From NCBI GenBank assembly GCA_965249275.1, contig CBDFLQ010000006.1, positions 640,434 through 704,433 on the forward strand: 64,000 nucleotides of DNA, written 5' to 3'. This stretch comes from Dehalococcoidia bacterium. Lineage in GTDB: Bacteria > Chloroflexota > Dehalococcoidia > Plut-88900. The translations under genes and the position numbers were made by a program. Below the pieces are notes generated by a model, which worked only from the letters and a program-made list of their open reading frames with translations, made no database searches and was not told the origin of the DNA. This document shows, one piece after another, positions 25,157 through 63,937 of the stretch (position 1 is the stretch's first letter; every line of letters starts with the position of its first letter).

Positions 25157-25176
25157 CCTCACAGAACCTGTGAGGC
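25157..25176. promoter_or_regulatory. Candidate operator: inverted repeat cctcacag-aac-ctgtgagg immediately upstream of vapB copy 1
   Basis: Perfect 8-bp inverted repeat overlapping a putative GAGG ribosome-binding site and promoter region. RHH antitoxins typically autoregulate via such palindromes. Confidence 0.35.
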
Positions 25177-25183
25177 TGTGACC

Positions 25184-25465
25184 ATGAAAAACATCACCCT
25201 ATCCATCGATGAACACACCCATCGGCAGGCGCGTATAAGAGCTGCGGAGTTGGGCACTTCGGTGTCCGCTCTGGTCAGAAGCTACCTCCAGTCACTGATA
25301 GCCCAGCCCATTGAAAAACCCGTAGCCAATGGACAGGACACAGAGACTCCCCTTGAGCGTCAACAGCGTCTCAAAGACTTCTTCGAGGGATTCGACGCCA
25401 GAGGCAGAGGAGTATCCGAGATTCTCCCTCGCGAAGCCATCTACGACCGCAATGCGCTTCGTTGA
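25184..25465 (+). CDS. vapB: Ribbon-helix-helix (CopG/VapB-like) antitoxin, copy 1
   Basis: MKNITLSIDEHTHRQARIRAAELGTSVSALVRSYLQSL fits the beta-strand plus two helices of the RHH fold. The start was placed at the internal ATG, which has a GAGG ribosome-binding site. Confidence 0.65.
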   Translation: MKNITLSIDEHTHRQARIRAAELGTSVSALVRSYLQSLIAQPIEKPVANGQDTETPLERQQRLKDFFEGFDARGRGVSEILPREAIYDRNALR

Positions 25466-25484
25466 TACCAACCAGAAACTGTGA
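25452..25484 (+). pseudogene. Vestigial vapC 5' end (MRFVDTNQKL-stop), overlapping the end of vapB copy 1
   Basis: atgcgcttcgttgataccaac… is nearly identical to the intact vapC start at 25769 (atgcgtttcgttgataccaac). It terminates after 10 codons at the duplication junction. Confidence 0.5.
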
Positions 25485-25491
25485 GGCTGTG

Positions 25492-25782
25492 ACCATGAAA
25501 AACATCACCCTATCCATCGATGAACACACCCATCGCCAAGCTCGTATAAGAGCTGCGGAGCTGGGCACTTCAGTGTCGGCGCTCGTCAGAAGCTACCTCC
25601 AGTCACTGATAGCCGAGCCCGTGGAGGAGAAGGTGACTGAAGAGGAGTCGGAGACGCCCATCGAACGTCGGCGCAGACTCCTGAAAGGGGCAGTTGACTC
25701 TATTACCGCAAACGGAGGGGGATTGCGCATGTCAGAGAATCTCCCCCGAGATGCCCTCTATGACCGCAATGCGTTTCGTTGA
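25492..25782 (+). CDS. vapB: RHH (VapB-like) antitoxin, copy 2
   Basis: The N-terminal 40 aa are identical to copy 1; the C-terminal half diverges. The stop overlaps the vapC start by 14 nt. Confidence 0.65.
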   Translation, partial: TMKNITLSIDEHTHRQARIRAAELGTSVSALVRSYLQSLIAEPVEEKVTEEESETPIERRRRLLKGAVDSITANGGGLRMSENLPRDALYDRNAFR

Positions 25783-26182
25783 TACCAACGTCCTGCTCTA
25801 CGCCGCTTGTGCTCTATCCGAGGAGGCTAACAAGCGCCATCGCGCCATCGACCTCCTAAAGGAAGGTGACTTAGCGTTGTCCGTACAGGTAATTCAGGAG
25901 TTCTACTACCAGTCAACTCGGGTGAGTCGTCAGGCACACATAACTCACGAACAAGCCATAAATTTCATTGGGAGCATGGACACCTTTCCGGTACAGCCCA
26001 TTAATCTCGACATCTTCCATGCAGCAGTGTCGATCTCCCAACGCTTCCAGTTGTCATACTGGGACGGTGCAATCCTCGCCGCCGCCCGAGCCCTCCGCTG
26101 TGACGCCGTCTACTCTGAAGATATGAGCTCAGAGCAGGACTACGACGGCCTCCGAGTCATAAACCCGTTCACCGCCCCATAA
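25769..26182 (+). CDS. vapC: PIN-domain ribonuclease toxin VapC
   Basis: MRFVDTNVLLYA…, with conserved acidic residues (D5, E in QEFYYQ, D in WDGAILAAA, D near the C-terminus). The start was chosen at the ATG at 25769, inside the longer ORF 25694. Confidence 0.75.
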   Translation: MRFVDTNVLLYAACALSEEANKRHRAIDLLKEGDLALSVQVIQEFYYQSTRVSRQAHITHEQAINFIGSMDTFPVQPINLDIFHAAVSISQRFQLSYWDGAILAAARALRCDAVYSEDMSSEQDYDGLRVINPFTAP

Positions 26183-26260: not shown

Positions 26261-27589
26261 ATGTCCACTAACGAGTCCAGAAAATACGTCATAATCGGCG
26301 CGGGAATTCACGGTCTCAGCACCGCGTGGCACCTGGCAATGGACCTCAAGAGCCGTGGCCAAGGCTCCGGCAGGGACATACTGGTCCTCGAAAAGAGCCA
26401 TGTCGGAGCGGGGGCTACAGGCGTAGCCTGCGGCAACGTCCGAAACTTCTACATGACCGAGGCCCTGCACCCCATCCTCAAGCACAGCGTCGACGTCTGG
26501 ATGCACGACCCAATCAACTTCGGGTTTCAGCAGGTGGGATACGTCTCCTGCGGCGAGGCCAACCAGACCCCCGACTTCGAGAAGATGCACAAGTCTCACA
26601 ATTCGGTGGACTACACTTCCAACCTGTACGTCGGCAAGGAGGCCCGAGACTTCCTCACGTCCATCTGGCCCGACTTCAAGACCGATGGCATAGACGTGGC
26701 CCTGGACGAACGTCTTAGCGGTTACGTCGGCACCCGAAACGTTCTCCGCGGTCTGGTGGAGAAATGTGAGCAACACGGGGTCGAGATTCGCACGGGCGTC
26801 GAGGTCACGGGCTACGACACCCGGGCAGGTAGCGTCAAGGCAGTAACCACAAACCAGGGCGAAATCGACTGCGACGCGGTCATCTGGGCCCTCGGCGCCT
26901 GGACTCCCAAGCACTGGGCCATGCTCGGCAAGCCCTCCCACATCGACTGCTCCTACTCGGACGGCTCCATAATCAACAAGGACATGTGGACCTTCTGGAG
27001 ACTCCGGGAAGGCGAGGTCTACTTCGACGAACCCTACGTAACTCCGGAGGGCAAGAATCCCCCCATCCTCCACATCGAGAAGATGAGCACCCCCGTCTAC
27101 GACGAGAGCACTGGCGAGATGCTCCGGGACTACCTGTACGTATACTTCAAGAACGCCAACGAACGGATGGAGAGCCCCGGCCTCCAGGGCGGCATCACAC
27201 CCGTCAAGATTGGCCCCGACGCCGTTGTAGACCCCTACGGCCACTCCAACGAGCTCTACCAGGCCGAGCCCGAGTTCGCCGACTACTTCTGCGCCGCAAT
27301 GGGCGCCACAATGTCCCGTTTCGAAGGCATCAGGTCGTCCTTCAAGCAACGGCCCAACGGCGGCATCGGCGCTTTCACGCCCGACAACCTGCCCGTCCTC
27401 GACTGGGTGGCCCCCAACGTCTACATGATCGAAGACAGCAACCACGGCTTCAAGATGATCGGGATAGGTAAGCTGGTATCCAAGCTCCTGATGGGTGAGG
27501 ATGTCCCGGACCTGAAACCCTTCGCCTTCAGCCGCTACGCCGAGGGCAAGACCTTCGGCAGCAACAACAGCCATTCGCCGTGGGTGTAG
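26261..27589 (+). CDS. FAD-dependent oxidoreductase (DAO family; sarcosine-oxidase-beta/amine oxidase-like)
   Basis: 442 aa. It has the N-terminal dinucleotide-binding motif KYVIIGAGIHGLSTAW and a DAO-family C-terminus. Confidence 0.7.
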   Translation: MSTNESRKYVIIGAGIHGLSTAWHLAMDLKSRGQGSGRDILVLEKSHVGAGATGVACGNVRNFYMTEALHPILKHSVDVWMHDPINFGFQQVGYVSCGEANQTPDFEKMHKSHNSVDYTSNLYVGKEARDFLTSIWPDFKTDGIDVALDERLSGYVGTRNVLRGLVEKCEQHGVEIRTGVEVTGYDTRAGSVKAVTTNQGEIDCDAVIWALGAWTPKHWAMLGKPSHIDCSYSDGSIINKDMWTFWRLREGEVYFDEPYVTPEGKNPPILHIEKMSTPVYDESTGEMLRDYLYVYFKNANERMESPGLQGGITPVKIGPDAVVDPYGHSNELYQAEPEFADYFCAAMGATMSRFEGIRSSFKQRPNGGIGAFTPDNLPVLDWVAPNVYMIEDSNHGFKMIGIGKLVSKLLMGEDVPDLKPFAFSRYAEGKTFGSNNSHSPWV

Positions 27590-28530
27590 ACGGTCTACAG
27601 GCCCGATTGGACTCGGGACCCGTCCTGATATTGGACGGCGCAGTCGGCACTGAGCTCGAAAAAATGGGTGTGCCCATGCACGGGCAAGTCTGGTGTGCCT
27701 CTGCGCTGGACACCCATCCCGGCATCGTCCGCCAACTCCATGAGGACTACATCAACGCTGGCGCCGACATCATAACGTCCAACTCCTACGCGTCCTCGCC
27801 TCACAATCTGGAGTCCGCGGGCCTCGGGGACCGGGCCGTAGAACTGAATGCCCTGTCCATCAAGCTGGTCAGGGATGCAATCGCCAACACCGCTCCCGGC
27901 AGGCCCATATGGGTTGCCGGTTCCATGTCCAGCTTCGGGGTATACGCCTTCAGCCGGAGGGGACGCAGCCTTTTGCCGTTCCCCGTGCTTGAAGAGAGCT
28001 ACCGACTTCAGGCCCACGCTTTGGCAGATGCCGGCGCTGACTTCCTCCTCCTCGAAATGATTCGAGAGGCGGAACACGGCTCAGCACTCCTGAGAGCGGC
28101 CCTTGAGACCGGGCTCCCGGTGTGGGTCGGGCTCAGTTGCAGCCTTACCCCTGAGGGTGAAGTCCACATGCTCTCGGAGGTTGAGCCAACTGCACCCTCA
28201 GAGCTCGACTTCCTGGAAACCCTCGACGAGGTGATGTCAGTCGGCGGTTCCCTGCTGGCCGTAATGCACAGCGATGTGCCCTGCATCAGCCCCGCGCTGA
28301 GGGCTGCGCGCTCAAGTTGGAAAGGCCCCCTCGCCGCCTACGCCAACTCCGGCACCTATTTCATGGCATCCGGTTCCGACTTCGGGAAGGTCGTTCCCCC
28401 GGATACCTACCTGCAGCATGTGCAAGAGTGGGTAGACCTCGGCGCCCGAGTCGTAGGGGGCTGCTGCGGTGTGGGTAGGGAGCACATCCGCCTAATCAGC
28501 GAGGCTTTCGGCAGCGCATCGGTGAAATAG
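27580..28530 (+). CDS. Homocysteine S-methyltransferase family protein (Pfam S-methyl_trans)
   Basis: 316 aa with a GTG start overlapping the upstream stop. Contains LDGAVGTELE near the N-terminus, a Zn-binding GGCCG motif near the C-terminus, and NSY. Confidence 0.7.
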   Translation: MGVDGLQARLDSGPVLILDGAVGTELEKMGVPMHGQVWCASALDTHPGIVRQLHEDYINAGADIITSNSYASSPHNLESAGLGDRAVELNALSIKLVRDAIANTAPGRPIWVAGSMSSFGVYAFSRRGRSLLPFPVLEESYRLQAHALADAGADFLLLEMIREAEHGSALLRAALETGLPVWVGLSCSLTPEGEVHMLSEVEPTAPSELDFLETLDEVMSVGGSLLAVMHSDVPCISPALRAARSSWKGPLAAYANSGTYFMASGSDFGKVVPPDTYLQHVQEWVDLGARVVGGCCGVGREHIRLISEAFGSASVK

Positions 28531-39011: not shown

Positions 39012-39626
39012 TTACTGGACAGGCGAGAAGGCGGACGGGAGCATGAATTTGGTATTCATCCCAACAATGTGTCCTCCAATGGCCGGAGGCCAGTCTCCCG
39101 CTGCCACGGCCGCCGCCCGGGTCTCGGTCCGGTGGTTCATGTCGTTGTAGGGCCAGATGTGGATTAGCTTGTTGAGCAGGCCCATGTCCGTCGAACCGGC
39201 GAAGAACACGTCCGAATGCTTCCGTCTGTCCGGCAGCTTGGCCCTGAACGCTTCCATAATCTCCGGCATGGAGCCGGGCGTGGCGTCGTAGTAGCGCATT
39301 TCGTAGAGAGGGCCGTAGTTGCCGGGCTCTATCGGCTTCTGGAATGGTCCGGGCACGACAATCTCGCTCTCCATCTTGACTATCAGGTGGCTGCCCTTGG
39401 GGGGCCAGTTGGGATTCGCTGCAGCGGCGGCCCGAATCTCTGACCTCTGCTGCACGTCTTCATAGCCCCATACGTGAATAACCTGGTTCAGTGGCCCGAC
39501 CTCCGTGTGCCAGAAAGCAGCAAGCTTTGAATACTTCTCCCGATGGGGAAGTGCCTCGCCAAAGATTTCTTCGAACTTGGGGACACCCCCGGGCTTCAGG
39601 GTATAGGTGCGGAATTCGTAGATCAT
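39012..39626 (-). CDS. NIPSNAP-family protein (two NIPSNAP repeats), copy 1
   Basis: 204 aa. MIYEFRTYTLKPG… and a second internal repeat (LYEMRYYDATPG…). Confidence 0.65.
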   Translation of the reverse strand: MIYEFRTYTLKPGGVPKFEEIFGEALPHREKYSKLAAFWHTEVGPLNQVIHVWGYEDVQQRSEIRAAAAANPNWPPKGSHLIVKMESEIVVPGPFQKPIEPGNYGPLYEMRYYDATPGSMPEIMEAFRAKLPDRRKHSDVFFAGSTDMGLLNKLIHIWPYNDMNHRTETRAAAVAAGDWPPAIGGHIVGMNTKFMLPSAFSPVQ

Positions 39627-39756: not shown

Positions 39757-40374
39757 CTAATGTGCAGGCGAGAAGGAGGATGGCACCATGATCTTGTTGT
39801 TCATGGTAACAAGGAACTTCCCTGTCGCCGGGGGCCAGTCCCCCGCCGCGACCGACGCCGCCCGGGTCTCGGATCGGTGATTCAGGTCGTTGTAGGGCCA
39901 AATGTGAATCAGCTTATTCAGCGACCCCATATCCGTGTACCCGCAGAAGAACAGCGGCGAATACTTCAGCCTTCCGGGAAGTTTGGCGCCCCAGATATCC
40001 ATGATCTCGGGCATGGATCCGGGCAGGGTGTCGTAGTAGCGCATCTCGTATACGTGGCCGTAGTTGCCGGGCTCTATAGGCTTCTGAAATGGCGCGGGGA
40101 TGACGATCTCGGTCTCCATCTTCACGATATATGCGTCGTCGCCTGCTGGAGGCCAGTTCGGGTCTGCGGCAGCAGCGGCCCGGACCTCGGCCCTGTGCTT
40201 CATGTCGTCGTAGCCCCAGACGTGGATGATCTGGTTCAGAGGCCCGATATCCGTGTGCCAGCAGGCAGTGAGCTTGGAATACTTCTCCCTGTGGGGCAGG
40301 GCATTGGCGAAACTCTCCTCGAACTTGCCCATGCTTCCGACGGTCAAGGTGTACGTGCGAAATTCGTAGATCAT
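39757..40374 (-). CDS. NIPSNAP-family protein, tandem paralog copy 2
   Basis: 205 aa, roughly 65% identical by eye to copy 1 with the same internal duplication. Confidence 0.65.
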   Translation of the reverse strand: MIYEFRTYTLTVGSMGKFEESFANALPHREKYSKLTACWHTDIGPLNQIIHVWGYDDMKHRAEVRAAAAADPNWPPAGDDAYIVKMETEIVIPAPFQKPIEPGNYGHVYEMRYYDTLPGSMPEIMDIWGAKLPGRLKYSPLFFCGYTDMGSLNKLIHIWPYNDLNHRSETRAASVAAGDWPPATGKFLVTMNNKIMVPSSFSPAH

Positions 40375-41312: not shown

Positions 41313-41579
41313 CTAAAGGCGAGAGTTGACCAGAGCTCTCGACTCGTGTTCGAGAACGGCCTCCACCTGCCATCTCTCGACACCCGGGAACCACTCAAGA
41401 AAGTCATTCACAGAGGCTCCAGCCATCAGATTCTCAAAAAGGGCGTGTACCGGCACCCGAGTACCGCGGAATACCCAAGCCCCGCTGACCTTACCGCTGT
41501 GCCGCTCGACGGCAGCGCAAGATCCCCAATAATCGTTGGCAATTGCGTGAGTGGGCATTGTTTCATCGCCGTTCTTCAT
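41313..41579 (-). CDS. DUF433-domain small protein (solo)
   Basis: GAWVFRGTRVPVHALFENLMAGASVNDFLEWFPGVERWQVEAVLEH matches the DUF433 consensus. Start uncertain: ORF start 41636 is TTG, and in-frame ATGs are at 41627, 41579 and 41558. Confidence 0.45.
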   Translation of the reverse strand: MKNGDETMPTHAIANDYWGSCAAVERHSGKVSGAWVFRGTRVPVHALFENLMAGASVNDFLEWFPGVERWQVEAVLEHESRALVNSRL

Positions 41580-41717
41580 AAGACGATTATAGGTCGGTAA
41601 ATTTGCCAGGGTCAACGAAGTGCCCATGGCATGCAACTGGCATAAAGCCCGTTACAAAGAGGGTGGCCCCGTCTAGCGGTGGGGCCACCCTTCTTTATTT
41701 CTTATTAGAATGAGGCC

Positions 41718-42887
41718 CTACTGCCTAGGCAACCCCAGCCCCCGAGTTGCGATGATATTCATCTGTATCTCGTTGGTGCCGCCGGCTATGGTGCTGGAAC
41801 GGGAGAACAGGTAGTTCTTCTCGATAAAGCCCTTTAGAGGCGCGTGCTTCGAGCCTTCCGTTAGCTGCCCGTGCAACCCGAGCACCTGCATTGCGGTGTC
41901 GAAGGCACGCTGCTCGGTGGAGGAGCCGCACAGCTTGTCTATCGAGGCCTCTTTGTTCGGCACCTCTCCCTTGCTCTGGATGTGGACCACCTGGTAGGAG
42001 AGCATGTAGGCGATCTCCACCTCGATGGCCATCTCCGCCAGCTTGTTGCGTACCACCGGATGCTGGATCAGGGGCTTGCCCCCCACCATGGTTTCCGAGG
42101 CGAACTTCACCGTTTCGTCAAGGCAGCGCCGCGCCGACGCCGAGTGTGAAAGTGAGGACCGCTCAAAATCCAGCAACGTCATGCCCGCATACCAGCCCCG
42201 GTTGATCTCCCCTACCACGTTCTCCTTCGGAATACGCACGTTGTCGAAGAAAGTCTCGTTGAAGGGGTGCCCGCCCGACATATCGATGATGGGTCGGACT
42301 GATACCCCAGGCGTCTTCATGTCGGCGAGAAACATGGTGATTCCCCGGTGCTTGGGAGCCTCGGGGTCGGTACGAGCCAGCAGCAGTACCCAGTCCGAGT
42401 AGTGAGCCTGGCTGGTCCATATCTTCTGACCGTTTATCACCCACTCGTCGCCTTCGAGCACCGCCCGTGTCCCGAGCGAAGCCAGATCGGACCCCGACTC
42501 GGGCTCCGAGTAGCCCTGGCACCAGACCACCTCGCCGCGTGCGATCCCGCTCAAGTGTTGCTTCTTCTGCTCCTCCGTGCCGTGGACCATGATGGCCGGG
42601 CCTATGTAGCCTATGCCCTCGCCGTCGCGGCCGGGAGCATAGGCGTAGGACCATTCATCTGTGAAGATGGCCTGCTGCATGTGGGTCGCGCCCCCACCGC
42701 CGTACTCCTTCGGCCAGGAGAGTGCGAGCCAGCCCTGGTCGGCCAGCTTCTTGCGCATGGTCTTCTCCTCATCCCACCACTCCTCACTCCCCTCTACGGC
42801 GAATGTATCGTCGGCCCACTCCTTGGCGAGGAAGTCCTTAACCTCTTGCCTAAAGTCCTGCTCTTCTGCTGTGAATTGGTATTTCAT
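41718..42887 (-). CDS. Acyl-CoA dehydrogenase
   Basis: 389 aa. ACAD N-terminal, middle (WCQGYSEPESGSDLASLGTRA) and C-terminal domains are present. A hairpin at 41669-41700 may serve as its terminator. Confidence 0.8.
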   Translation of the reverse strand: MKYQFTAEEQDFRQEVKDFLAKEWADDTFAVEGSEEWWDEEKTMRKKLADQGWLALSWPKEYGGGGATHMQQAIFTDEWSYAYAPGRDGEGIGYIGPAIMVHGTEEQKKQHLSGIARGEVVWCQGYSEPESGSDLASLGTRAVLEGDEWVINGQKIWTSQAHYSDWVLLLARTDPEAPKHRGITMFLADMKTPGVSVRPIIDMSGGHPFNETFFDNVRIPKENVVGEINRGWYAGMTLLDFERSSLSHSASARRCLDETVKFASETMVGGKPLIQHPVVRNKLAEMAIEVEIAYMLSYQVVHIQSKGEVPNKEASIDKLCGSSTEQRAFDTAMQVLGLHGQLTEGSKHAPLKGFIEKNYLFSRSSTIAGGTNEIQMNIIATRGLGLPRQ

Positions 42888-42992: not shown

Positions 42993-44288
42993 ATGAGACT
43001 TGAACTAGCCAACTACCCCGTGAAACAAATCATCCTGGGAGACGAGACCCGGTACCTGGACGGCGATCTCCACGTCAATCCCGACGAAGTCCGTGACATG
43101 ATGTTCGACGAAGAATTCTTCGAAGACATTTCAGTCCACGTTGCCCACCCCGGAGACTCGACTCGCATCATTCACGTCGTGGATGTGATTGAGCCCAGGC
43201 ATAAGCAGTCGGGTACTGGGTGTGTATTCCCTGGTGTGCTTGGCCCACCCGCGCAGGTCGGCAACGGACGAACGGCACGGCTGAGCGGAATGGCCGTCGT
43301 ATCAACTTCGACCCCTGCTGCGGGTGAGGGCTATTACTGGAGAGAAGCGATAATGGACATGTCGGGGCCGGGGACCCGGTATTCCCCCTTCTCCGAAAAT
43401 GCCAATCTGGTCCTGGAGTTATCCCCCAAGGACCCGGGCCCCGAGATTCCTGCGGAAGACGTAGAAATGATCAACACCATCCGAGGGTCGATATACAGCC
43501 AGAGGTTGAATCTGGCGCTCAGGAAAGCCCAGATGGGGCTGGCATCCTATCTCGCTGAAACGGTCTCGGGCTCCGCTCCGGCTTCCGTAGATACCTACGA
43601 GCTAACGGAGGTTGACCCGGGCCTGCCCAAAGTGGCCTACGCCTGTCAGGTAATGGGAGAAACACTCTACGGAGTCACGATAGGTTGGCAGCCGACCTTG
43701 CTCCACCCGAACGAGCTTATGGACGGCGCCATCTACCGTCCCTTCAATACCCCCGGCGCAGTAAGGACGACCATTTACCATCATCAGAACAATTCATTGA
43801 TGAATGACTTGTACCAACGGCACGGCAAGGACCTCAATTTTCTGGGCGTTCTCCTGGTGCCCGCGGGGCCAGAAAAGCTGAGCGAAAAGGAGCTGGGCAC
43901 GGGTTACGCCACCAAACTCCTCAAAATGTTGGACGCGGACGGTGTGGTCATCTCATGGATGGGTGGGGGGCACCTGGCAGTCGACCCCATGCTACTCATA
44001 AGAAACTGTGAACAGGCCGGGATTAGTGCATCACTCCTGAGTCCCGAGATGGCCCGCACTCCCGACGACTCGGGCTTCGTTTACTTCGCACAAGAGGCCG
44101 AGGCCATTGTCAGCACCGGCAACTACGAAGAACAGGTCACTCTCCCGGCCGTGGATCGTGTCATTGGCGGAGAATCGATCTTTGTGTCTGACGATGATCC
44201 AAAGGAAGAATTGACCATCCACATCACCCAGATCCTCGGGGCTACCCAAACATTTGGTCTGGGTAGACTGTCCGGGACTGCCTATTGA
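42993..44288 (+). CDS. Glycine/sarcosine/betaine reductase component-B proprotein family (GrdE/GrdG/GrdI-like, Pfam Gly_reductase), copy 1
   Basis: 431 aa. MRLELANYPVK…AHPGDSTRIIHVVDVIEPRHKQSGTGCVFPG…IMDMSGPGTRYSPFS…TTIYHHQNN resembles the GrdE-family conserved blocks as recalled (MRLE…ARPGESVRI…VIEPR.K..G…FPG…IDMSGEG.KY.PFS…TYHHLNN). Confidence 0.55.
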   Translation: MRLELANYPVKQIILGDETRYLDGDLHVNPDEVRDMMFDEEFFEDISVHVAHPGDSTRIIHVVDVIEPRHKQSGTGCVFPGVLGPPAQVGNGRTARLSGMAVVSTSTPAAGEGYYWREAIMDMSGPGTRYSPFSENANLVLELSPKDPGPEIPAEDVEMINTIRGSIYSQRLNLALRKAQMGLASYLAETVSGSAPASVDTYELTEVDPGLPKVAYACQVMGETLYGVTIGWQPTLLHPNELMDGAIYRPFNTPGAVRTTIYHHQNNSLMNDLYQRHGKDLNFLGVLLVPAGPEKLSEKELGTGYATKLLKMLDADGVVISWMGGGHLAVDPMLLIRNCEQAGISASLLSPEMARTPDDSGFVYFAQEAEAIVSTGNYEEQVTLPAVDRVIGGESIFVSDDDPKEELTIHITQILGATQTFGLGRLSGTAY

Positions 44289-44456
44289 GGGGCATGGGTA
44301 AGCTTCAACCGGGGGATCGGGTTTGATTCAGGTATTCCCAGGGCCTACGTCAGAGATATCGGCGCCAGCGCTCTCGGGCATGGGGTCGGGTGGAGTAGGT
44401 AAAGTGGGATTCCTCGGCACTACGACAAGCCTGGGCACGCTCCCCGAATTCCCATT

Positions 44457-45752
44457 ATGAAACTGGAGATTGCTAACTTCCCAGTAGAGCGCATCATCCT
44501 AGGAGACGAGACCCGGTACACCGACGGCGACCTACGGGTCAGCCCAGAGGCCGTTCGCTCCCGGATGTTCGACGGAGAGTTCTTCGACGACATTTCAGTC
44601 CACGTATCCCATCCCGGAGACTCGACCCGCCTCATCCATATCGTGGATGTAGTGGAGCCTCGATACAAGCAGTCGGGACCCGGGTGCGTTTTCCCAGGCG
44701 TCCTTGGGCCTCCGGTGCAGGTTGGAACCGGAAGAACGGCCCGGCTCAACGGCATGGCCGTAGTATCTACGTCCGGACCCGCCGCCGGAGAGAGCCAATA
44801 CTGGCGCGAGGCCATCCTCGACATGTCGGGGCCGGGGGCCCGGTATTCCCACTTCTCACAAACGGCCAACCTCGTCGTGGAGATGTCTCCCAAGGACCCG
44901 GGGCCCGAGACCCCGCCGGAAGACATCGAGACCCTGAACACGCTGCGGGGATCCGTTCACAGCCAGAGGATGAACGTGGCGCTGAGGAAAGCGCAAATAG
45001 CTCTCGCCTCGTATCTCGCCGAGACGGTCTCGGGCTTCTCGCCTGTCTCTGTAGATACATATGAGCTTACGGAAGTTGACTTCTCACTCCCGAAGGTAGT
45101 CTACGGTTGTCAGGTGGTGAGGGACCTGATCTACGGTATCCCCCCAGGATGGCAGCCGACCCTGCTTCACCCGAACGAGCTGATGGATGGCGCCGTCTTC
45201 CGTCTCTCCAATTACCTCGCCTCAGCTAGGACTACCATCTACGATCAGCAGAACCATCCCCTGGTAGAGGACCTGTATCAACGTCATGGCATTGACCTGA
45301 ATTTCCTGGGTGTGCTCCTGATTCCGGCGGGAGACGAAAAGCTGAGCGAGAAAGAGCTTTCCGCGGGGTACGCAGCCAAGCTTCTCAGGATGTTAGGGGC
45401 GAACGGGATCGTCCTTTCTTGGATGGGTGGAGGTCACCTGGCTATCGATCCCATGCTCTTGATTAGGAACTGCGCAAGGGCCGGTATAGGCACTTCGCTG
45501 CTGAGCCCCGAGATGGCCCGCACTCCCGACGACACCGGTTTCGTCTATTTCGCCCCCGAGGCGGAGGCAATCGTGAGTACGGGCAACTTCGAAGAGCAAG
45601 TCGTTTTGCCGCGTGTCGACCGAGTCATAGGCGGGAAAGCGCTTCTCATGTCCGGTGACGACTCACAGGGGGAGCTAACCGTTCGCATCGGGCAGATTCT
45701 CGGGGCCACCCATACCCTCGGGAAGGGCAAATTGTCCGGGATTGCATATTAA
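44457..45752 (+). CDS. GrdE-like proprotein-family protein, tandem paralog copy 2
   Basis: 431 aa, roughly 60% identical to copy 1 along the whole length. Confidence 0.55.
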   Translation: MKLEIANFPVERIILGDETRYTDGDLRVSPEAVRSRMFDGEFFDDISVHVSHPGDSTRLIHIVDVVEPRYKQSGPGCVFPGVLGPPVQVGTGRTARLNGMAVVSTSGPAAGESQYWREAILDMSGPGARYSHFSQTANLVVEMSPKDPGPETPPEDIETLNTLRGSVHSQRMNVALRKAQIALASYLAETVSGFSPVSVDTYELTEVDFSLPKVVYGCQVVRDLIYGIPPGWQPTLLHPNELMDGAVFRLSNYLASARTTIYDQQNHPLVEDLYQRHGIDLNFLGVLLIPAGDEKLSEKELSAGYAAKLLRMLGANGIVLSWMGGGHLAIDPMLLIRNCARAGIGTSLLSPEMARTPDDTGFVYFAPEAEAIVSTGNFEEQVVLPRVDRVIGGKALLMSGDDSQGELTVRIGQILGATHTLGKGKLSGIAY

Positions 45753-45846: not shown

Positions 45847-48138
45847 ATGACCACCACAGACTACGAGCCCAATGTCGTACTTGCCACGGTAGAGTTTGAC
45901 ACCATCGGGACCCGGCCCATCAGGCACGACGGCGTGGACAAGGTCACGGGTCGCGCCCAATACGGCGCCGACTTCCAGGCCAGCGATCTGCTCCACGGCA
46001 AGATCCTTCGAAGCCCCCACGCCCACGCTCGCATCATCTCCATCGACACATCCAAGGCGGAGGCCTACTCGGGCGTCAAGGCCGTGGTCACCGCCGCCGA
46101 CTTCCCCGCTGGCGAACAAGTGGGACAGATGCAGATGGGCGAGATCAGCATGAGCCTCCGCTTCATGCGGGACAACGTCCTAGCCAGCAAGAAGGTGTTG
46201 TACCCTGGACACCCCATAGTCGGGGTAGCGGCGGTGAACGCCCACGTGGCCGAGGAAGCCGTTAATCTCATCGACGTCGAATATGAGGTCCTCGAACCCG
46301 TGCCCACAGTCCTGGACGCTATCAGGGAAGGCGCACCTCTCCTGCACGATGACCTGATGACCGAAGAATTCGGTCAGAAGACGGACAAGGTGAGCAACGT
46401 AGCCAGCCACTTCCAGCACACGATGGGAGACGTGGAAAAGGCATTAGCCGAAGCGGACTACGTGGTCGAGCGTGAGTTCGACACCAAGACCGTTCACCAG
46501 GGCTACATCGAGCTCCACAACGCCACCGCGTTCTGGAACCGGGATGGTCGGGTCACGATCTGGTGCAGCACCCAGGGCCCATTCGAGGTTCGGGACGCAA
46601 CTGCCGGCATCCTGGGGCTGGACGTATCGCAGGTCAACCTGGTGCCCATGGAGATAGGCGGCGGGTTCGGGGGCAAGTTTGAGCCCTACGGCGACCCCGT
46701 AGCCGCCCTCCTTTCCAAGAAAACAGGCCACCCCGTCAAGATAGTCATGACTCGCCTGGAAGAGATCGAGAGTACGGGCCCGACCCCCGGCTCCTACATC
46801 AAGGTCAAGATGGGCGCCACCAAAGAGGGTAAACTCGTCGCGGCGCAGGCCTACATGGCATACGAAGCGGGGGCCTACCCCGGCTCTCCCATAGGCGCCG
46901 GTGCCCTGTGCATCTTCGGCCCCTACGACATCCCCAACGTCCTGATCGACGGGCTGGATGTCGTGGTTAATAAACCGAAGACCGCTGCCTACCGGGCCCC
47001 GGGCGCTACCAACGCCTCCTTCGCCTCGGAGACTATAGTCGACGAACTGGCGGCCATGGTGGGCATGGACCCCATCGACTTCCGCATGAACAACGCCTCC
47101 AAAGAAGGGACCAGAAGGGCCGACAGCGTACCCCACCCCAAGGTCGGCTGCATCGAGGTGCTCCAGGCTATGAAGGACCACCCCCACTGGAACGCCCCTC
47201 TGGAGGGCGAGAACCGGGGACGGGGTGTGGGGCTCGGGTTCTGGATGAACTTCGGCGGTCCGGCCAGCTGCACGATCAAGGTCAACGCCGACGGCACCGT
47301 GGCCCTCCGGGAAGGCTCCCCCGACATCGGAGGCACAAGGACGACGATCGCCATGCAGGCCGCCGAGGCGCTGGGCATATCGGCGGAGAGCGTGGTGCCG
47401 GGTGTCGTGGACACCGACTCGGTGGGCTACACCAACGGCACGGGCGGCAGCAGCGTCACCTTCAAGCAGGGGTTGGCCGCTCACGAGGCGGCCCAGCACG
47501 TCAAGCAGCAGATGATTGCCCGTGCCGCGACCATCTGGGCCATTGAGCCCGATTCTATCAAGTTCGAAAAGGGTGTCTTATTTTCCGAATCTGACCCCGA
47601 GCTGAGGATGACCTTCGCTGAGCTCGCCTCCAAGATTGAGGAGACGGGCGAGCCGATTGTCGGAGTCGGCAATGTCCAGGCCACCAAGGCCGGAGCCTCA
47701 TTCGCCGGCTCCATCGCCGACGTGGAGGTCGACCCGGAGACCGGCAAAGTTAAAATCTTGCGCTTCACCATGATCCAGGACGTGGGCAAGGCCGTACACC
47801 CCAGCTACGTCGAGGGACAGCTGCAAGGCGGCGGCGCTCAGGGCATCGGGTGGGCGATGAACGAGGAGTACTTCCTCAACGATAAGGGCCAGGTCCTCAA
47901 CTCCAGCCTGCTGGACTACCGCCTCCCCACAAGCCTCGACCTCCCGATGATCGACACCGTAATCGTCGAGGTCCCGAACCCCGGCCACCCATTCGGTGTG
48001 CGGGGCGTCGGCGAGGCGAACATCATCCCGCCTGCCGGGGCCTTGGGCAACGCCATCGCCAACGCAATCGGCGTCAGGATGGCGAACCTGCCGATGAATC
48101 CGCCAGCGATACGGGAAGCCATCGGGCGCAAGGGCTAG
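45847..48138 (+). CDS. Xanthine dehydrogenase/aldehyde oxidase-family molybdopterin-binding large subunit. No small or medium subunit gene is adjacent.
   Basis: 763 aa. MoCo-binding signature blocks are present (GGGFGGK, TAAYRAPGATNASFA, GVGEANIIPPAGALGNAIANAIG). AYRAPG resembles the generic AYRGAG rather than the CoxL form-I VAYRCSFR motif. Confidence 0.8.
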   Translation: MTTTDYEPNVVLATVEFDTIGTRPIRHDGVDKVTGRAQYGADFQASDLLHGKILRSPHAHARIISIDTSKAEAYSGVKAVVTAADFPAGEQVGQMQMGEISMSLRFMRDNVLASKKVLYPGHPIVGVAAVNAHVAEEAVNLIDVEYEVLEPVPTVLDAIREGAPLLHDDLMTEEFGQKTDKVSNVASHFQHTMGDVEKALAEADYVVEREFDTKTVHQGYIELHNATAFWNRDGRVTIWCSTQGPFEVRDATAGILGLDVSQVNLVPMEIGGGFGGKFEPYGDPVAALLSKKTGHPVKIVMTRLEEIESTGPTPGSYIKVKMGATKEGKLVAAQAYMAYEAGAYPGSPIGAGALCIFGPYDIPNVLIDGLDVVVNKPKTAAYRAPGATNASFASETIVDELAAMVGMDPIDFRMNNASKEGTRRADSVPHPKVGCIEVLQAMKDHPHWNAPLEGENRGRGVGLGFWMNFGGPASCTIKVNADGTVALREGSPDIGGTRTTIAMQAAEALGISAESVVPGVVDTDSVGYTNGTGGSSVTFKQGLAAHEAAQHVKQQMIARAATIWAIEPDSIKFEKGVLFSESDPELRMTFAELASKIEETGEPIVGVGNVQATKAGASFAGSIADVEVDPETGKVKILRFTMIQDVGKAVHPSYVEGQLQGGGAQGIGWAMNEEYFLNDKGQVLNSSLLDYRLPTSLDLPMIDTVIVEVPNPGHPFGVRGVGEANIIPPAGALGNAIANAIGVRMANLPMNPPAIREAIGRKG

Positions 48139-52874: not shown

Positions 52875-53816
52875 ATGAGCATGGGTACTATAGGCGTAGA
52901 GGTATCGGGGCGGAACGCAACCGAAATCGTCGGACAAATACAACGGCTCGAAGATCTGGGCGTCAAGGCTGCCTGGGCCACCTCGGGCGGGGACGCAGAC
53001 CCGATCACCTTGCTTGCCGTAGCGGCCGTGCAGACCGAGTCCATACTCCTCGGCACATCCATCGTCCCAACCTGGCCCCGCCACCCGATTACCACCGCCC
53101 AGCAGGCAAACGTGCTCGCCAATCTGGCTCCGGGTCGCTTCCGCCTCGGCATCGGGCCAAGCCACTACTCGGAAATGTACGAGCCCTTCCGTTTCAACTT
53201 TCGAAAGCCCCTTACCAACCTGCGGGAATACCTTCGAATCGTGAAACCCTTGATCCAAAAGGGCTCCGTAGACTTCGACGGTGAACAGTACCACGCACAC
53301 GTCGCCGCCTCTGATGCGTTCCCAGGCATGCCCGTCATGGCCTCGGCGCTAAGACCGAAATCCTTTCAGCTCTGCGGTGAGGAAGCCGATGGCGCTATCA
53401 GTTGGGTCTGCCCACTTGCTTACTTGCGAGACACAGCGCTCCCGGCCATGAGGGAAGCAGCCGAAGCCGCCGGACGCCCGACACCCCCGCTAATAGCTCA
53501 CGCTGTCGTCTCGGTCCACGAAAACTACGACGAAGTCAAAGAGGCTGCCCTGGAAGAGATGGCGTACTATCCCACAGCACCCTTCTACCAGCAGATGTTC
53601 GCACTGGCCGGGTACCCCGAGGCCGAGGAGCTTAATGGCTGGAGCGACCGGATGCTCAAGGAGATCGTGGTATCCGGCCCCGAGGATGAAGTCGCACCAA
53701 GGCTGGAACAGTTCTTCGACGCAGGCGCCGGAGAGGTGCTTGTCTCCATCATCCCCGCAGGCCCCGACAAGCGAGCCTCGTGGGAGCGGACGGCCAGACT
53801 CCTGGCGGGTCTTTAG
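52875..53816 (+). CDS. LLM-class F420-dependent oxidoreductase, paralog of the gene at 33184
   Basis: Start placed at the ATG at 52875 (MSMGTIG…), which has an AGAGG ribosome-binding site. RFRLGIGPS and an LLM C-terminus are present. Its stop overlaps the convergent M24 gene end by 4 nt. Confidence 0.75.
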   Translation: MSMGTIGVEVSGRNATEIVGQIQRLEDLGVKAAWATSGGDADPITLLAVAAVQTESILLGTSIVPTWPRHPITTAQQANVLANLAPGRFRLGIGPSHYSEMYEPFRFNFRKPLTNLREYLRIVKPLIQKGSVDFDGEQYHAHVAASDAFPGMPVMASALRPKSFQLCGEEADGAISWVCPLAYLRDTALPAMREAAEAAGRPTPPLIAHAVVSVHENYDEVKEAALEEMAYYPTAPFYQQMFALAGYPEAEELNGWSDRMLKEIVVSGPEDEVAPRLEQFFDAGAGEVLVSIIPAGPDKRASWERTARLLAGL

Positions 53817-54997
53817 TCTTCCCAGTAGGGCGTGTAGCCGGCCGTGGTGAGTCGGTCAAGGCCCGTGGCCGTAACCTGGTACATGTCCTCGACTTTGACG
53901 ACTACTGTTTCCCCGTTCACCTCCACCGAGGTCTCAGGCTCCAGGCAGATCACCATCCCCTCTTCAAGCTGCGCGTCAACCATCATCATGTCCGGGCGAT
54001 AGATGATGGGAAGCTCGCAGGCCCGGAGCCCGGTCCCATGGCCCAGGGAGTAGGGCGTAGTCGGGTAGCCGGACTTTGCCAGCAGGTCGTTGACCGTACG
54101 GTCCAGGTGGGAGACTCGGACGCCGGGCTTGGCCTCGGCCTCCGTGGCCCGGTGAGATTCCATCAGCACCTTCCAGGCCTTCTGCACGAGCGCGGGAGGC
54201 TCACCCACGAAACCCGTCCTGCACATGTCGGAGCCGTACCCGCCTTTTACGTAGCACCCCCAGTCGAACGCCATCGTTCCGCCTTCCTCCATCTTGCTCC
54301 CCCTCGGGAACCAGCCGGCCGTAAGCTGGCTTTCACCCTTGATGCAAACGTTATGGGTGATGAATTCGGCGCCTTGGGCACGCATCGTGCCGTCAATGGC
54401 GGAAAGCACCTCAAAGTCCAGCGCTCCCTCCTGCATCGCCTCCAGTCCAGCGTCCCCTCCCATAGATGCAATCTCCGCGCTGGAGCGGATCAGCTTGATC
54501 TCCTCCGAGTGCTTCACCTGCCGAGCCATGGCCAGCGGCATATAGGCGTCCAAGAAAGTGGCCTCCGACATCATCCGTTTCATCCCGTCCCACAGCTGGA
54601 ACGGCATCGCGTCGACCCCCACCCGCCGTGCCCCGAGGCTCCGTAGCTTGCGCGAAAGAATATCGACCCAGATCTCGGCCTGGGTGATACTGGACACCCA
54701 TGAGGGCGTCGGTACGAACTCCTTGATCCAGGGCAGGTCGGGCATCGGCTTGTCTACCACCCGGTCGACATAGGGAATGTAGAGGTAAGCCTCGCCTTCC
54801 TGCGTCACAATTGCCGCGAACCAGTCGTAGGATTCGCAGATCAGGAAGACACCGAAGTCCGTGGCATAGCGGATGTTATCGTGGCCCATGAGGACGAGGG
54901 CGTCAACGTTGGCGTCCTTCATCACCTGGGCGACCCTCTCGGTGCGGTACTTGCGAAGGCCGTCCCAATCGATATCCGGGTAAGAGTACATGCTCAC
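53813..54997 (-). CDS. M24-family metallopeptidase (creatinase/prolidase-like, Xaa-Pro dipeptidase/aminopeptidase)
   Basis: 394 aa. It has a creatinase-type N-terminal domain and a pita-bread C-domain with metal ligands (DWGCYVKGGYGSDMCRT, HGTGLRACE, EPETS). Confidence 0.75.
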   Translation of the reverse strand: MSMYSYPDIDWDGLRKYRTERVAQVMKDANVDALVLMGHDNIRYATDFGVFLICESYDWFAAIVTQEGEAYLYIPYVDRVVDKPMPDLPWIKEFVPTPSWVSSITQAEIWVDILSRKLRSLGARRVGVDAMPFQLWDGMKRMMSEATFLDAYMPLAMARQVKHSEEIKLIRSSAEIASMGGDAGLEAMQEGALDFEVLSAIDGTMRAQGAEFITHNVCIKGESQLTAGWFPRGSKMEEGGTMAFDWGCYVKGGYGSDMCRTGFVGEPPALVQKAWKVLMESHRATEAEAKPGVRVSHLDRTVNDLLAKSGYPTTPYSLGHGTGLRACELPIIYRPDMMMVDAQLEEGMVICLEPETSVEVNGETVVVKVEDMYQVTATGLDRLTTAGYTPYWED

Positions 54998-59041: not shown

Positions 59042-60703
59042 ATGCCTCAAGTAGACGTCATATTCCACAACGGCCCGATTTTAACCGTCGACGCACAGGA
59101 CACGGTCTCCGGGGCCGCGGCGGTGATTGGCAACAAGATCTCCGCCGTAGGTCATGCGGAAGAAGTGCTGGCGTCCAAGGGTGATGGTACCCTCGTCGTA
59201 GACTTGGCCGGGCGAGCCCTCGTCCCCGGCTTCAACGACGCCCACACCCACCTGGAACTCACGAGCCTGGGCCTCGGGCTCGCCGTCAGTTGCCACACCC
59301 CACCCCACGAGAGTATTAAGGACATCCTCACCACCCTGAGTGAGCACGCCGCGGGTGTGCCCAAAGGCGACTGGATCATCGCCCAGGGCAGCCTCTTTCA
59401 GGACATGCGCCTCCGGGAAAAGCGCTACCCCGACCGGCACGATCTGGACCGCGTCAGCGTCGATCATCCCATCCTGTTCAAGACCAGCTACCACATGGTG
59501 ATAGTCAACAGTAAGGTGTTGGAGATCGCAGGTATAACCTCGGATACCCCCGACCCCCAGGGCGGCATCATCGAAAGAGACTCCTCCGGCGAGCCCACGG
59601 GCCGCATGAAGGACATGTATCACCGGCTCCCAGTCCCTATGCCCGACTACGAAACGGTCAAGGACGCCATCCGACGCACCGTCCACGACCGTTTCCTGGC
59701 CAACGGCGTCACCACCGTCCAGGAGATGTCCGAGACCGTGTCGGGCCTCGGGGCCATGCGGGAGCTCATAGACTCCGGCGAGATGCCCCTCAGACTGAGC
59801 GTCTATATCCACGTGCCCGGCACCCTGCCTCTGGACAACGTGCTGAATAACGAGATCGGAGACTTCGAATTCGACGACGCGTGGCTCAGGCTCGGCGGGG
59901 TCAAGTTGTTCATTGACGGCGGGTTTTCCGCAAGGGCCGCCGCCCTCCGGGACCCCTACGAAGGCTACCCCGACATCACCGGCAAGCTCGGATACGAGGA
60001 CCGGGAGCTCAGGAGGATCGTGCGCAAGGTGCACCGGGCCGGACTCCAGCTGCGCATGCATACCAACGGCGACCGAGCCATCAAGCAGCTCATTGATGCC
60101 TTCGAGACGGTGTTCGGAATTCCGGCGGGTGTCGGAGAGGACTGGCCCTACCGACACCGCGCCGAGCACGTAGGCAACGTTCTCCTACGCGACGACCTGA
60201 CCATCTCGCGGCTGGCAAGCGCCAAGATTCTGCCGGTACCCAACCCTGCATTCATCTACAGCGTCGCCGAGTTTGTTGCCCCATATCTCGGCCCGGAGCG
60301 GAGCCATCCATCCTTCCGATTCAGGACCCTTTTGGACGCCGGGTTCCGAGTTCCGGGCAGCTCGGACTGCACGGGCACCGACCCGTGGCTCGTCAACCCC
60401 ATGTTCGGCATCTGGTGCATGGTCAACCGTCGCACCTACTCCGGAGACCTGTTGGAACCCGAGGAAAAGGTCTCCGTCGCCGAGGCCATACGCATTTACA
60501 CCTACAATTCCGCCTACGCCGAATTCCAGGAAGAGGTCAAAGGGTCCATCGAGGAAGGGAAGCTGGCCGACCTCGTGGTGCTTGACCGTGACCCGATCAC
60601 CGCGCCGGAAGAGACGTTGAAGGACATACGCGTCGACCAAACATGGGTAGACGGCAAGCTAGTTTTCAGTAGAGACCCGAATGAGGAGAGCAGCAATGGG
60701 TGA
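59042..60703 (+). CDS. Amidohydrolase-3 (PF07969) family metal-dependent hydrolase
   Basis: About 553 aa. The N-terminal HxH (FNDAHTHLE) and an Amidohydro_3 C-terminus are present. An upstream in-frame ATG at 58997 is an alternative start. Confidence 0.7.
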   Translation: MPQVDVIFHNGPILTVDAQDTVSGAAAVIGNKISAVGHAEEVLASKGDGTLVVDLAGRALVPGFNDAHTHLELTSLGLGLAVSCHTPPHESIKDILTTLSEHAAGVPKGDWIIAQGSLFQDMRLREKRYPDRHDLDRVSVDHPILFKTSYHMVIVNSKVLEIAGITSDTPDPQGGIIERDSSGEPTGRMKDMYHRLPVPMPDYETVKDAIRRTVHDRFLANGVTTVQEMSETVSGLGAMRELIDSGEMPLRLSVYIHVPGTLPLDNVLNNEIGDFEFDDAWLRLGGVKLFIDGGFSARAAALRDPYEGYPDITGKLGYEDRELRRIVRKVHRAGLQLRMHTNGDRAIKQLIDAFETVFGIPAGVGEDWPYRHRAEHVGNVLLRDDLTISRLASAKILPVPNPAFIYSVAEFVAPYLGPERSHPSFRFRTLLDAGFRVPGSSDCTGTDPWLVNPMFGIWCMVNRRTYSGDLLEPEEKVSVAEAIRIYTYNSAYAEFQEEVKGSIEEGKLADLVVLDRDPITAPEETLKDIRVDQTWVDGKLVFSRDPNEESSNG

Positions 60704-61118
60704 TCAAGAGGAACGAGGCCCCAACCACATCAAGAACTATGCGCTCGGACCCATGCAGCCCTACGGCAACTATCCCCAATCTCTACTGGACACGTTCAGA
60801 GTTAAATCGCTCCTGAGCCCCGGCGCTCACCTAAAGACAGAGGACGCCCACGCCGGCCTGCTCGAAATAGCCCCGGGCACCGACTACGCGGCTCACACTC
60901 ACGCTTGGCCCGAGGCCTACTTTATCATCAAAGGGACCGCGGATTGCGTCTGGGGCGAGGACTCGTTCACCGCAGGCCCCGGCACCATGATTTACGGCGG
61001 GCCCTTTACATCCCACGCCATGGTCATCACCAGTGAAGAACCTCTCCTGACCCTCATTTTCAGCTGGGCCCCGGGCGGCGACAGAAGTGTCTTCGATGAA
61101 GATGGAAAACTAATCTAA
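60696..61118 (+). CDS. Cupin-domain protein
   Basis: About 140 aa. HTHAWPEAYFIIKGTADCVWGE is a cupin motif 1. An ATGGGTGA overlap couples it to the upstream amidohydrolase. Confidence 0.6.
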   Translation: MGDQEERGPNHIKNYALGPMQPYGNYPQSLLDTFRVKSLLSPGAHLKTEDAHAGLLEIAPGTDYAAHTHAWPEAYFIIKGTADCVWGEDSFTAGPGTMIYGGPFTSHAMVITSEEPLLTLIFSWAPGGDRSVFDEDGKLI

Positions 61119-62608: not shown

Positions 62609-63937
62609 GTGACGAGGGAGCAGGCCATGACAAATTTGAAGGTAGTCCACTATCTGAACCAGTTCTTCGCCGGTGTGGGTGGTGAAGAGAAGGCCGACGT
62701 TGGCCCCGGAGCCCGGGAAGGCGCAGTCGGACCCGGCATGGCGCTGAACCAGGCCCTTGGAGACGCCGGTGAGGTCATCGGCACCGTCTACTGCGGCGAC
62801 AACCACATCTCCGAAAACCCCGAAACGGCGACCCAGGAGGTCGTCGAGCTTATATCTCAGTTCAAACCCGATATCGTGATTGCCGGGCCGGGATTCGGCT
62901 CCGGACGGTACGGATTGGCCTGTGGTCAGGTATGCCTGGCAGTTAAAGAGAATCTCAAAATCCCTGCCCTTACCGGCGTCCACAAGGAGAGCCCCGCTGC
63001 CGAGACCTACAAGGGTAAAGTCCTGATGGCCTCCACCAAGGACTCGGCTGCCGGTATGGTCGAGGCAATGACTGTAATCGCACGGCTCGCCTCCAAGCTG
63101 GCCGACAAAGAAGAGTTGGGTCCGGCCATGGAAGAAGGCTACCTACCCACCGGACGACGCGTTAACCGATTCTCCGACAAGACTGCTGCGGAGCGGGCGG
63201 TGGACATGTTGATGCGCAAGCTCCGTGGCGAAGACCCGAAGACCGAATGGCCCCTCCCCAAGTACGAGCAAGTTGCTCCCGCTGCGGCCCTCGCCAGTGC
63301 CGGGAACGCCACCATAGCCATCGTCACAGAGGGCGGAATCGTACACCGTGGAAACCCAGAGAAGCTGGAATCGGGCTGGGCCACCAAGTGGGTCAAGTTC
63401 GACACGGCGGAAGAGCCGGAGATGACCCCCGACAAGTTCCAGAGTATCCACGGCGGTTTCGACACCACCACCGCCAGCGCCGAGCCCAACCGCATGGTTC
63501 CACTGGATGCCGCCCGCGAGATGGAGTCCGAGGGGACAATCGGCAAGCTGCACGACTACGTCTACAGCACCACGGGCAACATGGGGCCAATTGCCAGCTT
63601 TAAGCAGTTCGGGGAGGAGATAGCCGCCGAGCTAACCTCGGCGGGCGTCCAGGGAGTGATTCTAACCGCAACCTGAGGCACCGGAACGCGTAGCGGCGCT
63701 ACGCTTCAGAAAGAGCTTGAGAGGGCTGGCCTCCCGACCGCTCTCGTAACCACCCTGTTCAATCTCGCAGAGGGAGTCGGGGCCAGCCGTATCGTCAAAG
63801 GCAAGGCTATCCCACACCCTCTCGGAGACCCGAGCCAGACCTACGAGGGCGAAAAGCAACTGCGTAAGGAGATGCTGAAGAAGGCCCTGGAGGCCCTGGA
63901 GACCGAGGTCGCATCCCCCACGGTTTTCACTACCTAG
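62609..63937 (+). CDS. Glycine/sarcosine/betaine/D-proline reductase selenoprotein B family (GrdB/GrdF/GrdH-like). The in-frame TGA at 63674-63676 is read as selenocysteine (residue 356 of 442).
   Basis: The N-terminus KVVHYLNQFFAGVGGEEKADVGPGAREGAVGPGMA matches the GrdB-family start as recalled. Translation continues in frame after the TGA for 86 codons of clearly protein-like sequence (UGTGTRSGATLQKELERAGLPTALVTT…IPHPLGDP…) to the TAG at 63935-63937. A hairpin begins 11 nt after the TGA. Confidence 0.6.
63688..63704 (+). promoter_or_regulatory. Candidate bacterial SECIS hairpin (gcgtagc-GGC-gctacgc) beginning 11 nt downstream of the UGA
   Basis: 7-bp perfect stem with a 3-nt G-containing apical loop at the position expected for a bSECIS. 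Confidence 0.4.

Follow-up and report, generated by a model that had tools for sequence, protein, structure and literature searches.

How a GrdE-type protein could function without the cysteine that yields its pyruvoyl group is the question raised by two adjacent genes of a Dehalococcoidia bacterium. The whole stretch of DNA analysed here, called the window, comprises 64,000 nucleotides (nt) of assembly GCA_965249275.1 (contig CBDFLQ010000006.1, positions 640,434 to 704,433 of the forward strand), and the two genes, copy 1 (c1) and copy 2 (c2), belong to an unstudied selenium-dependent reductase gene set of marine-type Dehalococcoidia. Judged from their sequences, neither product is expected to be able to form a pyruvoyl group by canonical cysteinolysis. 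We lean, with modest confidence, towards reading both as unprocessed, pyruvoyl-free E subunits, similar to GrdI and FarE, of a selenocysteine (Sec)-dependent protein B, which would act together with a Sec-containing GrdB lacking CxxC, GrdA and GrdC. Their substrate would be a substituted acetate with no need of a Schiff base. Related loci that were compared are labelled L001, L002 and so on.

The gene pair and its loop equivalent to the pyruvoyl site

The two genes and the loops that correspond to the pyruvoyl site are located as follows:

42993-44288, forward strand: c1, GrdE-family (PF09338) gene, 431 amino acids, from its open reading frame and the PF09338 profile
44457-45752, forward strand: c2, tandem paralogue of c1, 431 amino acids, from its open reading frame and the PF09338 profile
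43734-43784, forward strand: c1 loop, residues 248-264 (YRPFNTPGAVRTTIYHH), equivalent of the pyruvoyl site, with the Asn252 codon at 43746-43748
45198-45248, forward strand: c2 loop, residues 248-264 (FRLSNYLASARTTIYDQ), equivalent of the pyruvoyl site, with the Asn252 codon at 45210-45212

An earlier note on this DNA had described the genes as a tandem pair of paralogs of the GrdE (protein B) family, and both points hold: the adjacent 431-amino-acid reading frames are 74% identical without gaps, and the Pfam search proposed as a check did not come back empty. The Gly_reductase profile PF09338 matched c1 and c2 at 308.4 and 293.9 bits (cut-off 22.2), covering residues 1-423 and 1-425 of 431, respectively. 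The sequence blocks quoted in that note are present in both copies, and those in common with the GrdE type are VIEPR.K, FPG, IDMSGPG, HPNE..DGA and TY.HQNN. Among the NCBIfam models, GrdG gave 221 and 186 bits for c1 and c2 (cut-off 780) and FarE gave 131 and 113 bits (cut-off 675), scores so far under the cut-offs that the substrate class is not transferable, while PrdA matched weakly and in part (29 and 17 bits, cut-off 700) and PrdD (TIGR04482) gave weak N-terminal matches (E = 1.7e-4 and 2.3e-3). No hit specific to GrdI came from NCBIfam. By these profiles, c1 and c2 appear to be superfamily members that lie outside every named equivalog.

In C. difficile GrdE, the pyruvoyl peptide labelled by a hydrazine probe comprises residues 242-266 (CVSACDKNPSYVHINNGVVEDLYAR), and the precursor of the pyruvoyl group is its first cysteine, C242 (PMC9908766 and its supplement). 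The canonical motif was fixed with a 41-amino-acid padded bait, which gave four short fragments reading ...DGAIVSGN followed by CVSACDKNPTYVHLNN; L005, a canonical but frameshifted grd operon, was reached via these fragments. The spacing from DGA to NN is 24 residues in the canonical fragments as well as in c1 and c2, so that no gap is needed in the alignment. The register was determined by tblastn of c1 against canonical grdE, by MAFFT L-INS-i with 133 sequences, and by HHalign against seven Cys-bearing representatives (probability 100%, 34% identity, 411 columns, loop ungapped), and all three place Asn252 of both c1 and c2 opposite Cys242. The second cysteine of the canonical CVSAC, four residues on, aligns with Ala256 in c1 and Ser256 in c2.

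The non-conservation of the pyruvoyl-forming cysteine, as claimed earlier, is therefore borne out by tblastn, MAFFT and HHalign alike. The note had put N-T-P-G and N-Y-L-A at the cysteine site. The place was right, since NTPG (c1, codons 43746-43757) and NYLA (c2, codons 45210-45221) are residues 252-255, in register with C-V-S-A, but the equivalent of the cysteine is the Asn and not the Thr or Tyr that follows it. Thr253 of c1 was considered as the cysteine equivalent and rejected, because the ungapped register from the three methods puts Asn252 there. Asn252 stands 7 residues before the TTIY block, not 10-15 as had been estimated. At the mapped cleavage position, the alignment with characterised GrdE has no Cys, Ser or Thr in either copy. 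No cysteine is found near the loop in either copy, cysteines being present solely at positions 77, 218 and 339. With Asn at the cysteine position and no cysteine nearby, the canonical route to pyruvoyl would be closed to both copies, so the wording "copy 2 at least", which set the two apart, does not stand.

Cysteine loss in the family and the history of the pair

To assess the frequency of this state, 1.84 billion cluster representatives were searched exhaustively with HMMER, which gave 1049 family clusters, and residues were counted in the 130 full-length representatives nearest to c1. Cysteine occupies the pyruvoyl column in only 8 of these 130 (MAFFT), Tyr (55/130) and Phe (13/130) predominate there, and Asn is a minority state (5/130). 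A carbonyl cofactor is not needed for substrates that cannot form a Schiff base, such as a quaternary amine or fluoroacetate. According to a previous study, GrdI and FarE are Cys-less members of the family and not proproteins, and FarB has no CxxC after its Sec (PMC10838667). The rarity implied by the earlier note is thus contradicted: the Cys-less state is widespread in the family and has already been described for betaine and fluoroacetate reductases. Neofunctionalisation may have occurred, yet it is not required to account for the absent cysteine. The count also warns against annotating PF09338 proteins by default as "glycine reductase proproteins". For naming the loop motifs, GrdG and FarE were the only NCBIfam models for the family, and no representative reached either cut-off. 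Among the family members, P0192 (546 amino acids) is a fusion of a Cys-bearing GrdE with a thioredoxin TrxA domain at its N-terminus, and P0179 and P0247 (789/798 amino acids) and P0224 (621 amino acids) are unusually long, with C-terminal extensions.

Loss of the canonical cysteine could in principle be made good by self-processing at another residue, through serinolysis at Ser256 in c2, an N-to-O shift at Thr253 in c1, or succinimide-type cleavage at Asn252, giving two chains with or without a carbonyl cofactor. Such processing is in keeping with several observations. At column 256, the canonical second cysteine, 49 of the 130 representatives have Ser or Cys, and the c2 clade has Ser without exception; all members of the 14-sequence clade alignment share Asn252; and two of the related E-like paralogues of these genomes (type A, FNGPASIRE; type B, FMGPAGSRD; type C, FNPPACGRE) have Asn-Gly (type A) or Asn-Pro (type C) at 252-253. 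Moreover, an AlphaFold2 model of c1 is of high confidence (predicted local distance difference test score, pLDDT, 92; predicted template modelling score, pTM, 0.92), and its loop 248-260 is ordered with a pLDDT of about 90. Against this, c1 has Ala256 in most species, type B has Met at 252, the mapped C. difficile pyruvoyl residue is the first cysteine and not the second, and the published Cys-less members are regarded as non-proproteins (PMC10838667). We consider self-processing of this kind improbable, and both copies presumably stay unprocessed. No solved structure resembles the c1 model beyond generic alpha/beta domains, and the predicted structure adds no functional assignment.

The two copies do not look like a recent duplication. 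In a neighbour-joining tree, the two copies fall into sister clades with an identical order of species in each, so the duplication would be older than these species, and synonymous divergence between them (dS >1.2) is consistent with an old event; c2 thus appears to have arisen long ago as a tandem duplicate of c1. Purifying selection acts on both copies, with a ratio of nonsynonymous to synonymous substitution (dN/dS) of about 0.12 for c1 and 0.17-0.23 for c2 orthologues. The second copy is intact in the window, L003, L004, L010, L013 and L017 and absent from L001, L002/L016, L014 and L015; a search for a decayed c2 in the L001 gap found no remnant. As well, c2 is split by an insertion of ~1 kb in L011 (11465-13872), and a partial match is present in L012 (11749-12324). 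Given its loss or disruption in several relatives, c2 is dispensable.

This distribution, together with a dN/dS somewhat above that of c1 and the change of one family-conserved residue (E340A), is what would be expected if c2 were a redundant duplicate drifting to loss, with no function of its own, and only c1 mattered. That account is opposed by an open reading frame kept intact in five species across the whole clade with dN/dS <=0.23 in spite of the age of the copy, and by the retention of 75 of the 76 family-conserved columns. In addition, of the 17 positions that are fixed within each clade and different between c1 and c2, 5 fall within residues 248-264 (Y248F, T253Y, G255A, H263D and H264Q; hypergeometric P = 2.4e-4), bunched in the site loop and not random. 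Decay of c2 therefore seems to us to have only a slim chance of being the explanation, and most likely c2 differs from c1 in substrate specificity or joins it in a heteromer.

The downstream selenoprotein cluster and gene order in relatives

The partners proposed for c1 and c2 lie at the far end of the window, and the genes next to the pair are of other kinds:

62627-63937, forward strand: GrdB-family selenoprotein gene, 436 codons (PF07355, TIGR01918), with an in-frame TGA (Sec) at 63674-63676
63688-63704, forward strand: candidate selenocysteine insertion sequence (SECIS) hairpin GCGUAGC-GGC-GCUACGC, 7 base pairs, 12 nt past the UGA, from folding and conservation
63951-64000, forward strand: start of grdC, ATG and first 16 codons (MTTQSPAFTSNGQDSP), cut by the window end
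41718-42887, reverse strand: acyl-CoA dehydrogenase (ACAD), divergent neighbour of c1, from Pfam, synteny kept
45847-48138, forward strand: molybdopterin-binding (Mo) subunit of the XDH/CODH family, downstream of c2, from Pfam, synteny kept

The GrdB-like selenoprotein that had been noticed 17 kb downstream is indeed there, 16.9 kb from c2, with a PF07355 score of 452 bits and a full-length TIGR01918 match of 509 bits (cut-off 65) that lies below the GrdB/GrdF/GrdH equivalog cut-offs. The TGA is codon 350, and similarity to canonical GrdB runs on past it. The Sec motif reads TAT-U-GTGTRSG, so that both cysteines of the canonical UxxCxxC are missing; U-GTGTRSG is common to the window, L021, L030 and L032, and L008 has U-GTCTRCG. 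The candidate SECIS hairpin is kept in 5 orthologues, and L008 shows 2 compensatory pair changes in it, although on its own it is not significant against shuffles and it overlaps coding constraint. No tRNA gene, tRNA-Sec included, was detected in the window.

An exact look-up of the GrdB product gave no match, and a 97%-identical orthologue was used in its place. In the syntenic locus L030, where GrdB is 97% identical and the DNA 88-93% identical to the window, the GrdC N-terminus (MTTQSPAFISNGQG) is matched by MTTQSPAFTSNGQDSP, the L030 GrdC reaches 668 bits with the NF040746 equivalog (cut-off 450), and next to it comes a grdA selenoprotein gene with CFV-U-TAAGAMDL, whose counterpart lies beyond the window end. 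A grdB-grdC-grdA cluster thus appears to start in the window and to run off its end. In L030 (11325-13350), a complete GrdC and the Sec-containing GrdA come after grdB, with two EutA/arylmalonate-decarboxylase-like genes next in line. Just upstream of grdB, with conserved synteny, are a cupin gene resembling dimethylsulfoniopropionate (DMSP) lyase (60681-61118; PF16867, E = 4.6e-10; L030 8064-8486), an amidohydrolase gene and a luciferase-like gene, a setting that may hint at sulfonium or betaine-type substrates.

The genomes compared are Dehalococcoidia (Chloroflexota) chromosomes of ~3.0-3.4 Mb from metagenome-assembled genomes, and one GrdB homologue (62% identity) carries the label SAR202 in its source. 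They were scanned with the 14-sequence alignment, a 57-sequence alignment being too diverse. Each sampled genome has two loci, namely ACAD-c1(±c2)-Mo subunit and, separately, a triple cluster of the E-like paralogues of types A, B and C beside an MFS transporter and DXS, which brings the Cys-less E-like genes to 4-5 per genome. Orthologues of c1 occupy the same syntenic position in at least 10 Dehalococcoidia genomes, the synteny of the Mo subunit extends over L001-L004 and L013-L017, and the adjacency of ACAD and c1 is kept even at L018, where the c1-like gene is 61% identical. In the triple clusters of L006 (7265-8004) and L007 (10681-11417), a ParD/PIN toxin-antitoxin pair separates the second E-like paralogue from the third.

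Other relatives bring E-like genes and grdB together. L021 has a contiguous E'-E''-GrdB-GrdC-GrdA, L032 has the order MFS-E(A)-E(B)-FMNO-E(C)-GrdB-GrdC-GrdA, which is probably ancestral, and in L008/L009 a Cys-less E-like gene lies 1.2 kb from a Sec-GrdB that retains CxxC. By gene order, then, the Cys-less E clade appears tied to the GrdB/GrdC/GrdA core, and the suggestion of a dispersed Grd-like system gains ground, as the GrdB-like gene of the window heads a grdB-grdC-grdA cluster and Cys-less E-like genes abut that cluster in relatives. In the window lineage, the ancestral grdB neighbours seem to be the A/B/C paralogues and not c1/c2. On the chromosome of L011/L025, a second GrdB-family gene (L031 10001-11056), 54% identical and truncated at the Sec position, stands beside an amine oxidase and two Zn-dependent alcohol dehydrogenases, and no E-like, GrdA or GrdC gene was found within 10 kb of it.

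Gene order also gives some room to a different view, in which c1 and c2 would be GrdB-independent, neofunctionalised enzymes or binding proteins working with their conserved neighbours (ACAD, Mo-hydroxylase subunit, SDRs, CoA-transferases) in a gene island for the breakdown of organic acids, and their proximity to grdBCA would be incidental. The long-kept ACAD-c1(-c2)-Mo arrangement described above fits this view, as do the excess of 4-5 E-like paralogues per genome over one grdBCA cluster and an orphan GrdB-like gene, and the triple clusters that have no GrdB within 10 kb in 9 genomes. It is countered by the fact that all characterised PF09338 members work with a B-type selenoprotein (PMC9908766, PMC10838667), by the related E-like paralogues that abut grdBCA in L021 and L032, and by the lack of any sign of a different activity, as neither another catalytic motif nor another cofactor site could be identified and no structural relative in the PDB suggests one. 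We regard a GrdB-independent role as unlikely, though it deserves more weight than self-processing or decay of c2.

The flanks of the pair were named correctly in the earlier note: Pfam identifies the acyl-CoA dehydrogenase and the XDH-family Mo subunit, and no Fe-S or FAD subunit gene is present beside the latter. The wider window is rich in luciferase-like monooxygenases, NIPSNAP proteins, SDRs, family III CoA-transferases, amidohydrolases and M19/M24 peptidases. A promoter and terminator scan around c1/c2 gave signals no better than shuffles. On the reverse strand, tandem NIPSNAP paralogues of 204 and 205 amino acids (39012-39626 and 39757-40374) are present in every syntenic locus, and a small DUF433 gene between an SDR gene and ACAD (41313-41636) is found in the window, L003 and L004 and is missing in L001 and L002. 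Further off, at 25162-25789, a tandem duplication of ~311 nt (86-92% identical) doubles a small antitoxin-like open reading frame (MKNITLSIDEHTHRQARIRAAELG...) upstream of a 162-amino-acid one. The window also holds a homocysteine S-methyltransferase gene (27580-28530; PF02574, BHMT/MmuM family) and a creatinase/prolidase-like M24 peptidase gene (53813-54997), which would be consistent with metabolism of the betaine, sarcosine or creatine type in the organism.

A possible role, and known systems compared

If c1 and c2 are Cys-less E subunits of the kind proposed at the outset, they would stay single-chain, as do GrdI of betaine reductase and FarE of fluoroacetate reductase, and would assist GrdB in binding a substituted acetate with a leaving group of the quaternary amine, sulfonium or halide type. 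The Sec of GrdB would attack the alpha-carbon of the substrate, and the carboxymethyl group would then pass to the Sec of GrdA and on to GrdC. In this scheme, we infer the absence of cleavage, the physical partnership with GrdB and the class of substrate.

Several findings weigh against this interpretation. The pair and grdB are 16.9 kb apart and belong to separate transcription units, and the conserved neighbours of the pair are ACAD and the Mo-hydroxylase subunit, with no grd genes among them. The E-like genes next to grdB in L032 are of the A/B/C types, which are located elsewhere in genomes of the window lineage, so the GrdB partner in the window organism may be A/B/C and not c1/c2. A tblastx search of the window and of 669 kb of related loci gave no hit for GrdD, thioredoxin or thioredoxin reductase. 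As noted for the NCBIfam models, both copies score far under the FarE and GrdG equivalog cut-offs, and a substrate class should not be carried over from either. The lack of processing is read from sequence, and Thr253 in c1 and Ser256 in c2 are potential nucleophiles. Finally, c1 evolves several times faster than its neighbours, with 75-86% identity against 90-96% for ACAD, the Mo subunit, SDR, NIPSNAP and M19 (L013-L017).

A broader proposal, which we offer as speculation and think doubtful, would take all Asn-type E paralogues (c1, c2, A, B and C) as interchangeable specificity subunits for one CxxC-less Sec-GrdB/GrdC/GrdA core that does without GrdD, serving the reductive cleavage of C-N, C-S or C-halogen bonds in several substituted acetates (betaines, sulfonio-acetates, haloacetates) in an oxygen-adapted marine Dehalococcoidia lineage. 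In a variant of it, the conserved Asn252 would mediate succinimide-type self-cleavage instead of cysteinolysis.

Selenoenzymes of the Grd type are regarded as characteristic of strict anaerobes that ferment amino acids. Here, the grdB-grdC-grdA core is found in Dehalococcoidia genomes rich in luciferase-like monooxygenases, and in relatives the grd cluster has O2-dependent enzyme types, such as a fatty-acid desaturase, next to it. Chloroflexi are not mentioned in marine surveys of betaine reductase genes. If active, the system would represent an unrecognised selenium-dependent route by which an abundant marine lineage could cleave osmolyte-like or halogenated acetates reductively.

Compared with the proproteins GrdE, GrdG and PrdA, c1 and c2 have the full-length PF09338 match and the shared sequence blocks. 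Unlike these, they have Asn252 in place of the C242-type precursor cysteine and Ala or Ser in place of the second CVSAC cysteine, their genes are not adjacent to grdB/grdA, and their host is an aerobe-like Dehalococcoidia and not a Stickland fermenter. PrdD and PrdE, the uncleaved PrdA-like proteins of the prd operon, are likewise related to PF09338 and without the cleavage cysteine; each of them matches part of PrdA (the PrdD profile has 246 positions), whereas c1 and c2 are full-length and GrdE-like, and no prd genes are present here.

In the processing site, c1 and c2 resemble GrdI and FarE. These differ from c1 and c2, which carry Asn at the cysteine position and not the common Tyr or Phe, score 131 and 113 bits against the 675 demanded by the FarE model, lack farA antiporter or farC radical-SAM neighbours, and belong to a set of E genes multiplied to 4-5 per genome and set apart from grdB. 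By the published criterion, with GrdI compared by its published description, c1 and c2 are also without both processing cysteines (PMC10838667), the partner FarB has no CxxC after Sec, as is true of the GrdB-like protein of the window, and the GrdI and FarE systems feed GrdA and GrdC. Cys-less E subunits of Grd-type selenoenzymes are thus known, and what is new here is the unexpected lineage in which they occur and the unusual expansion of their paralogues.

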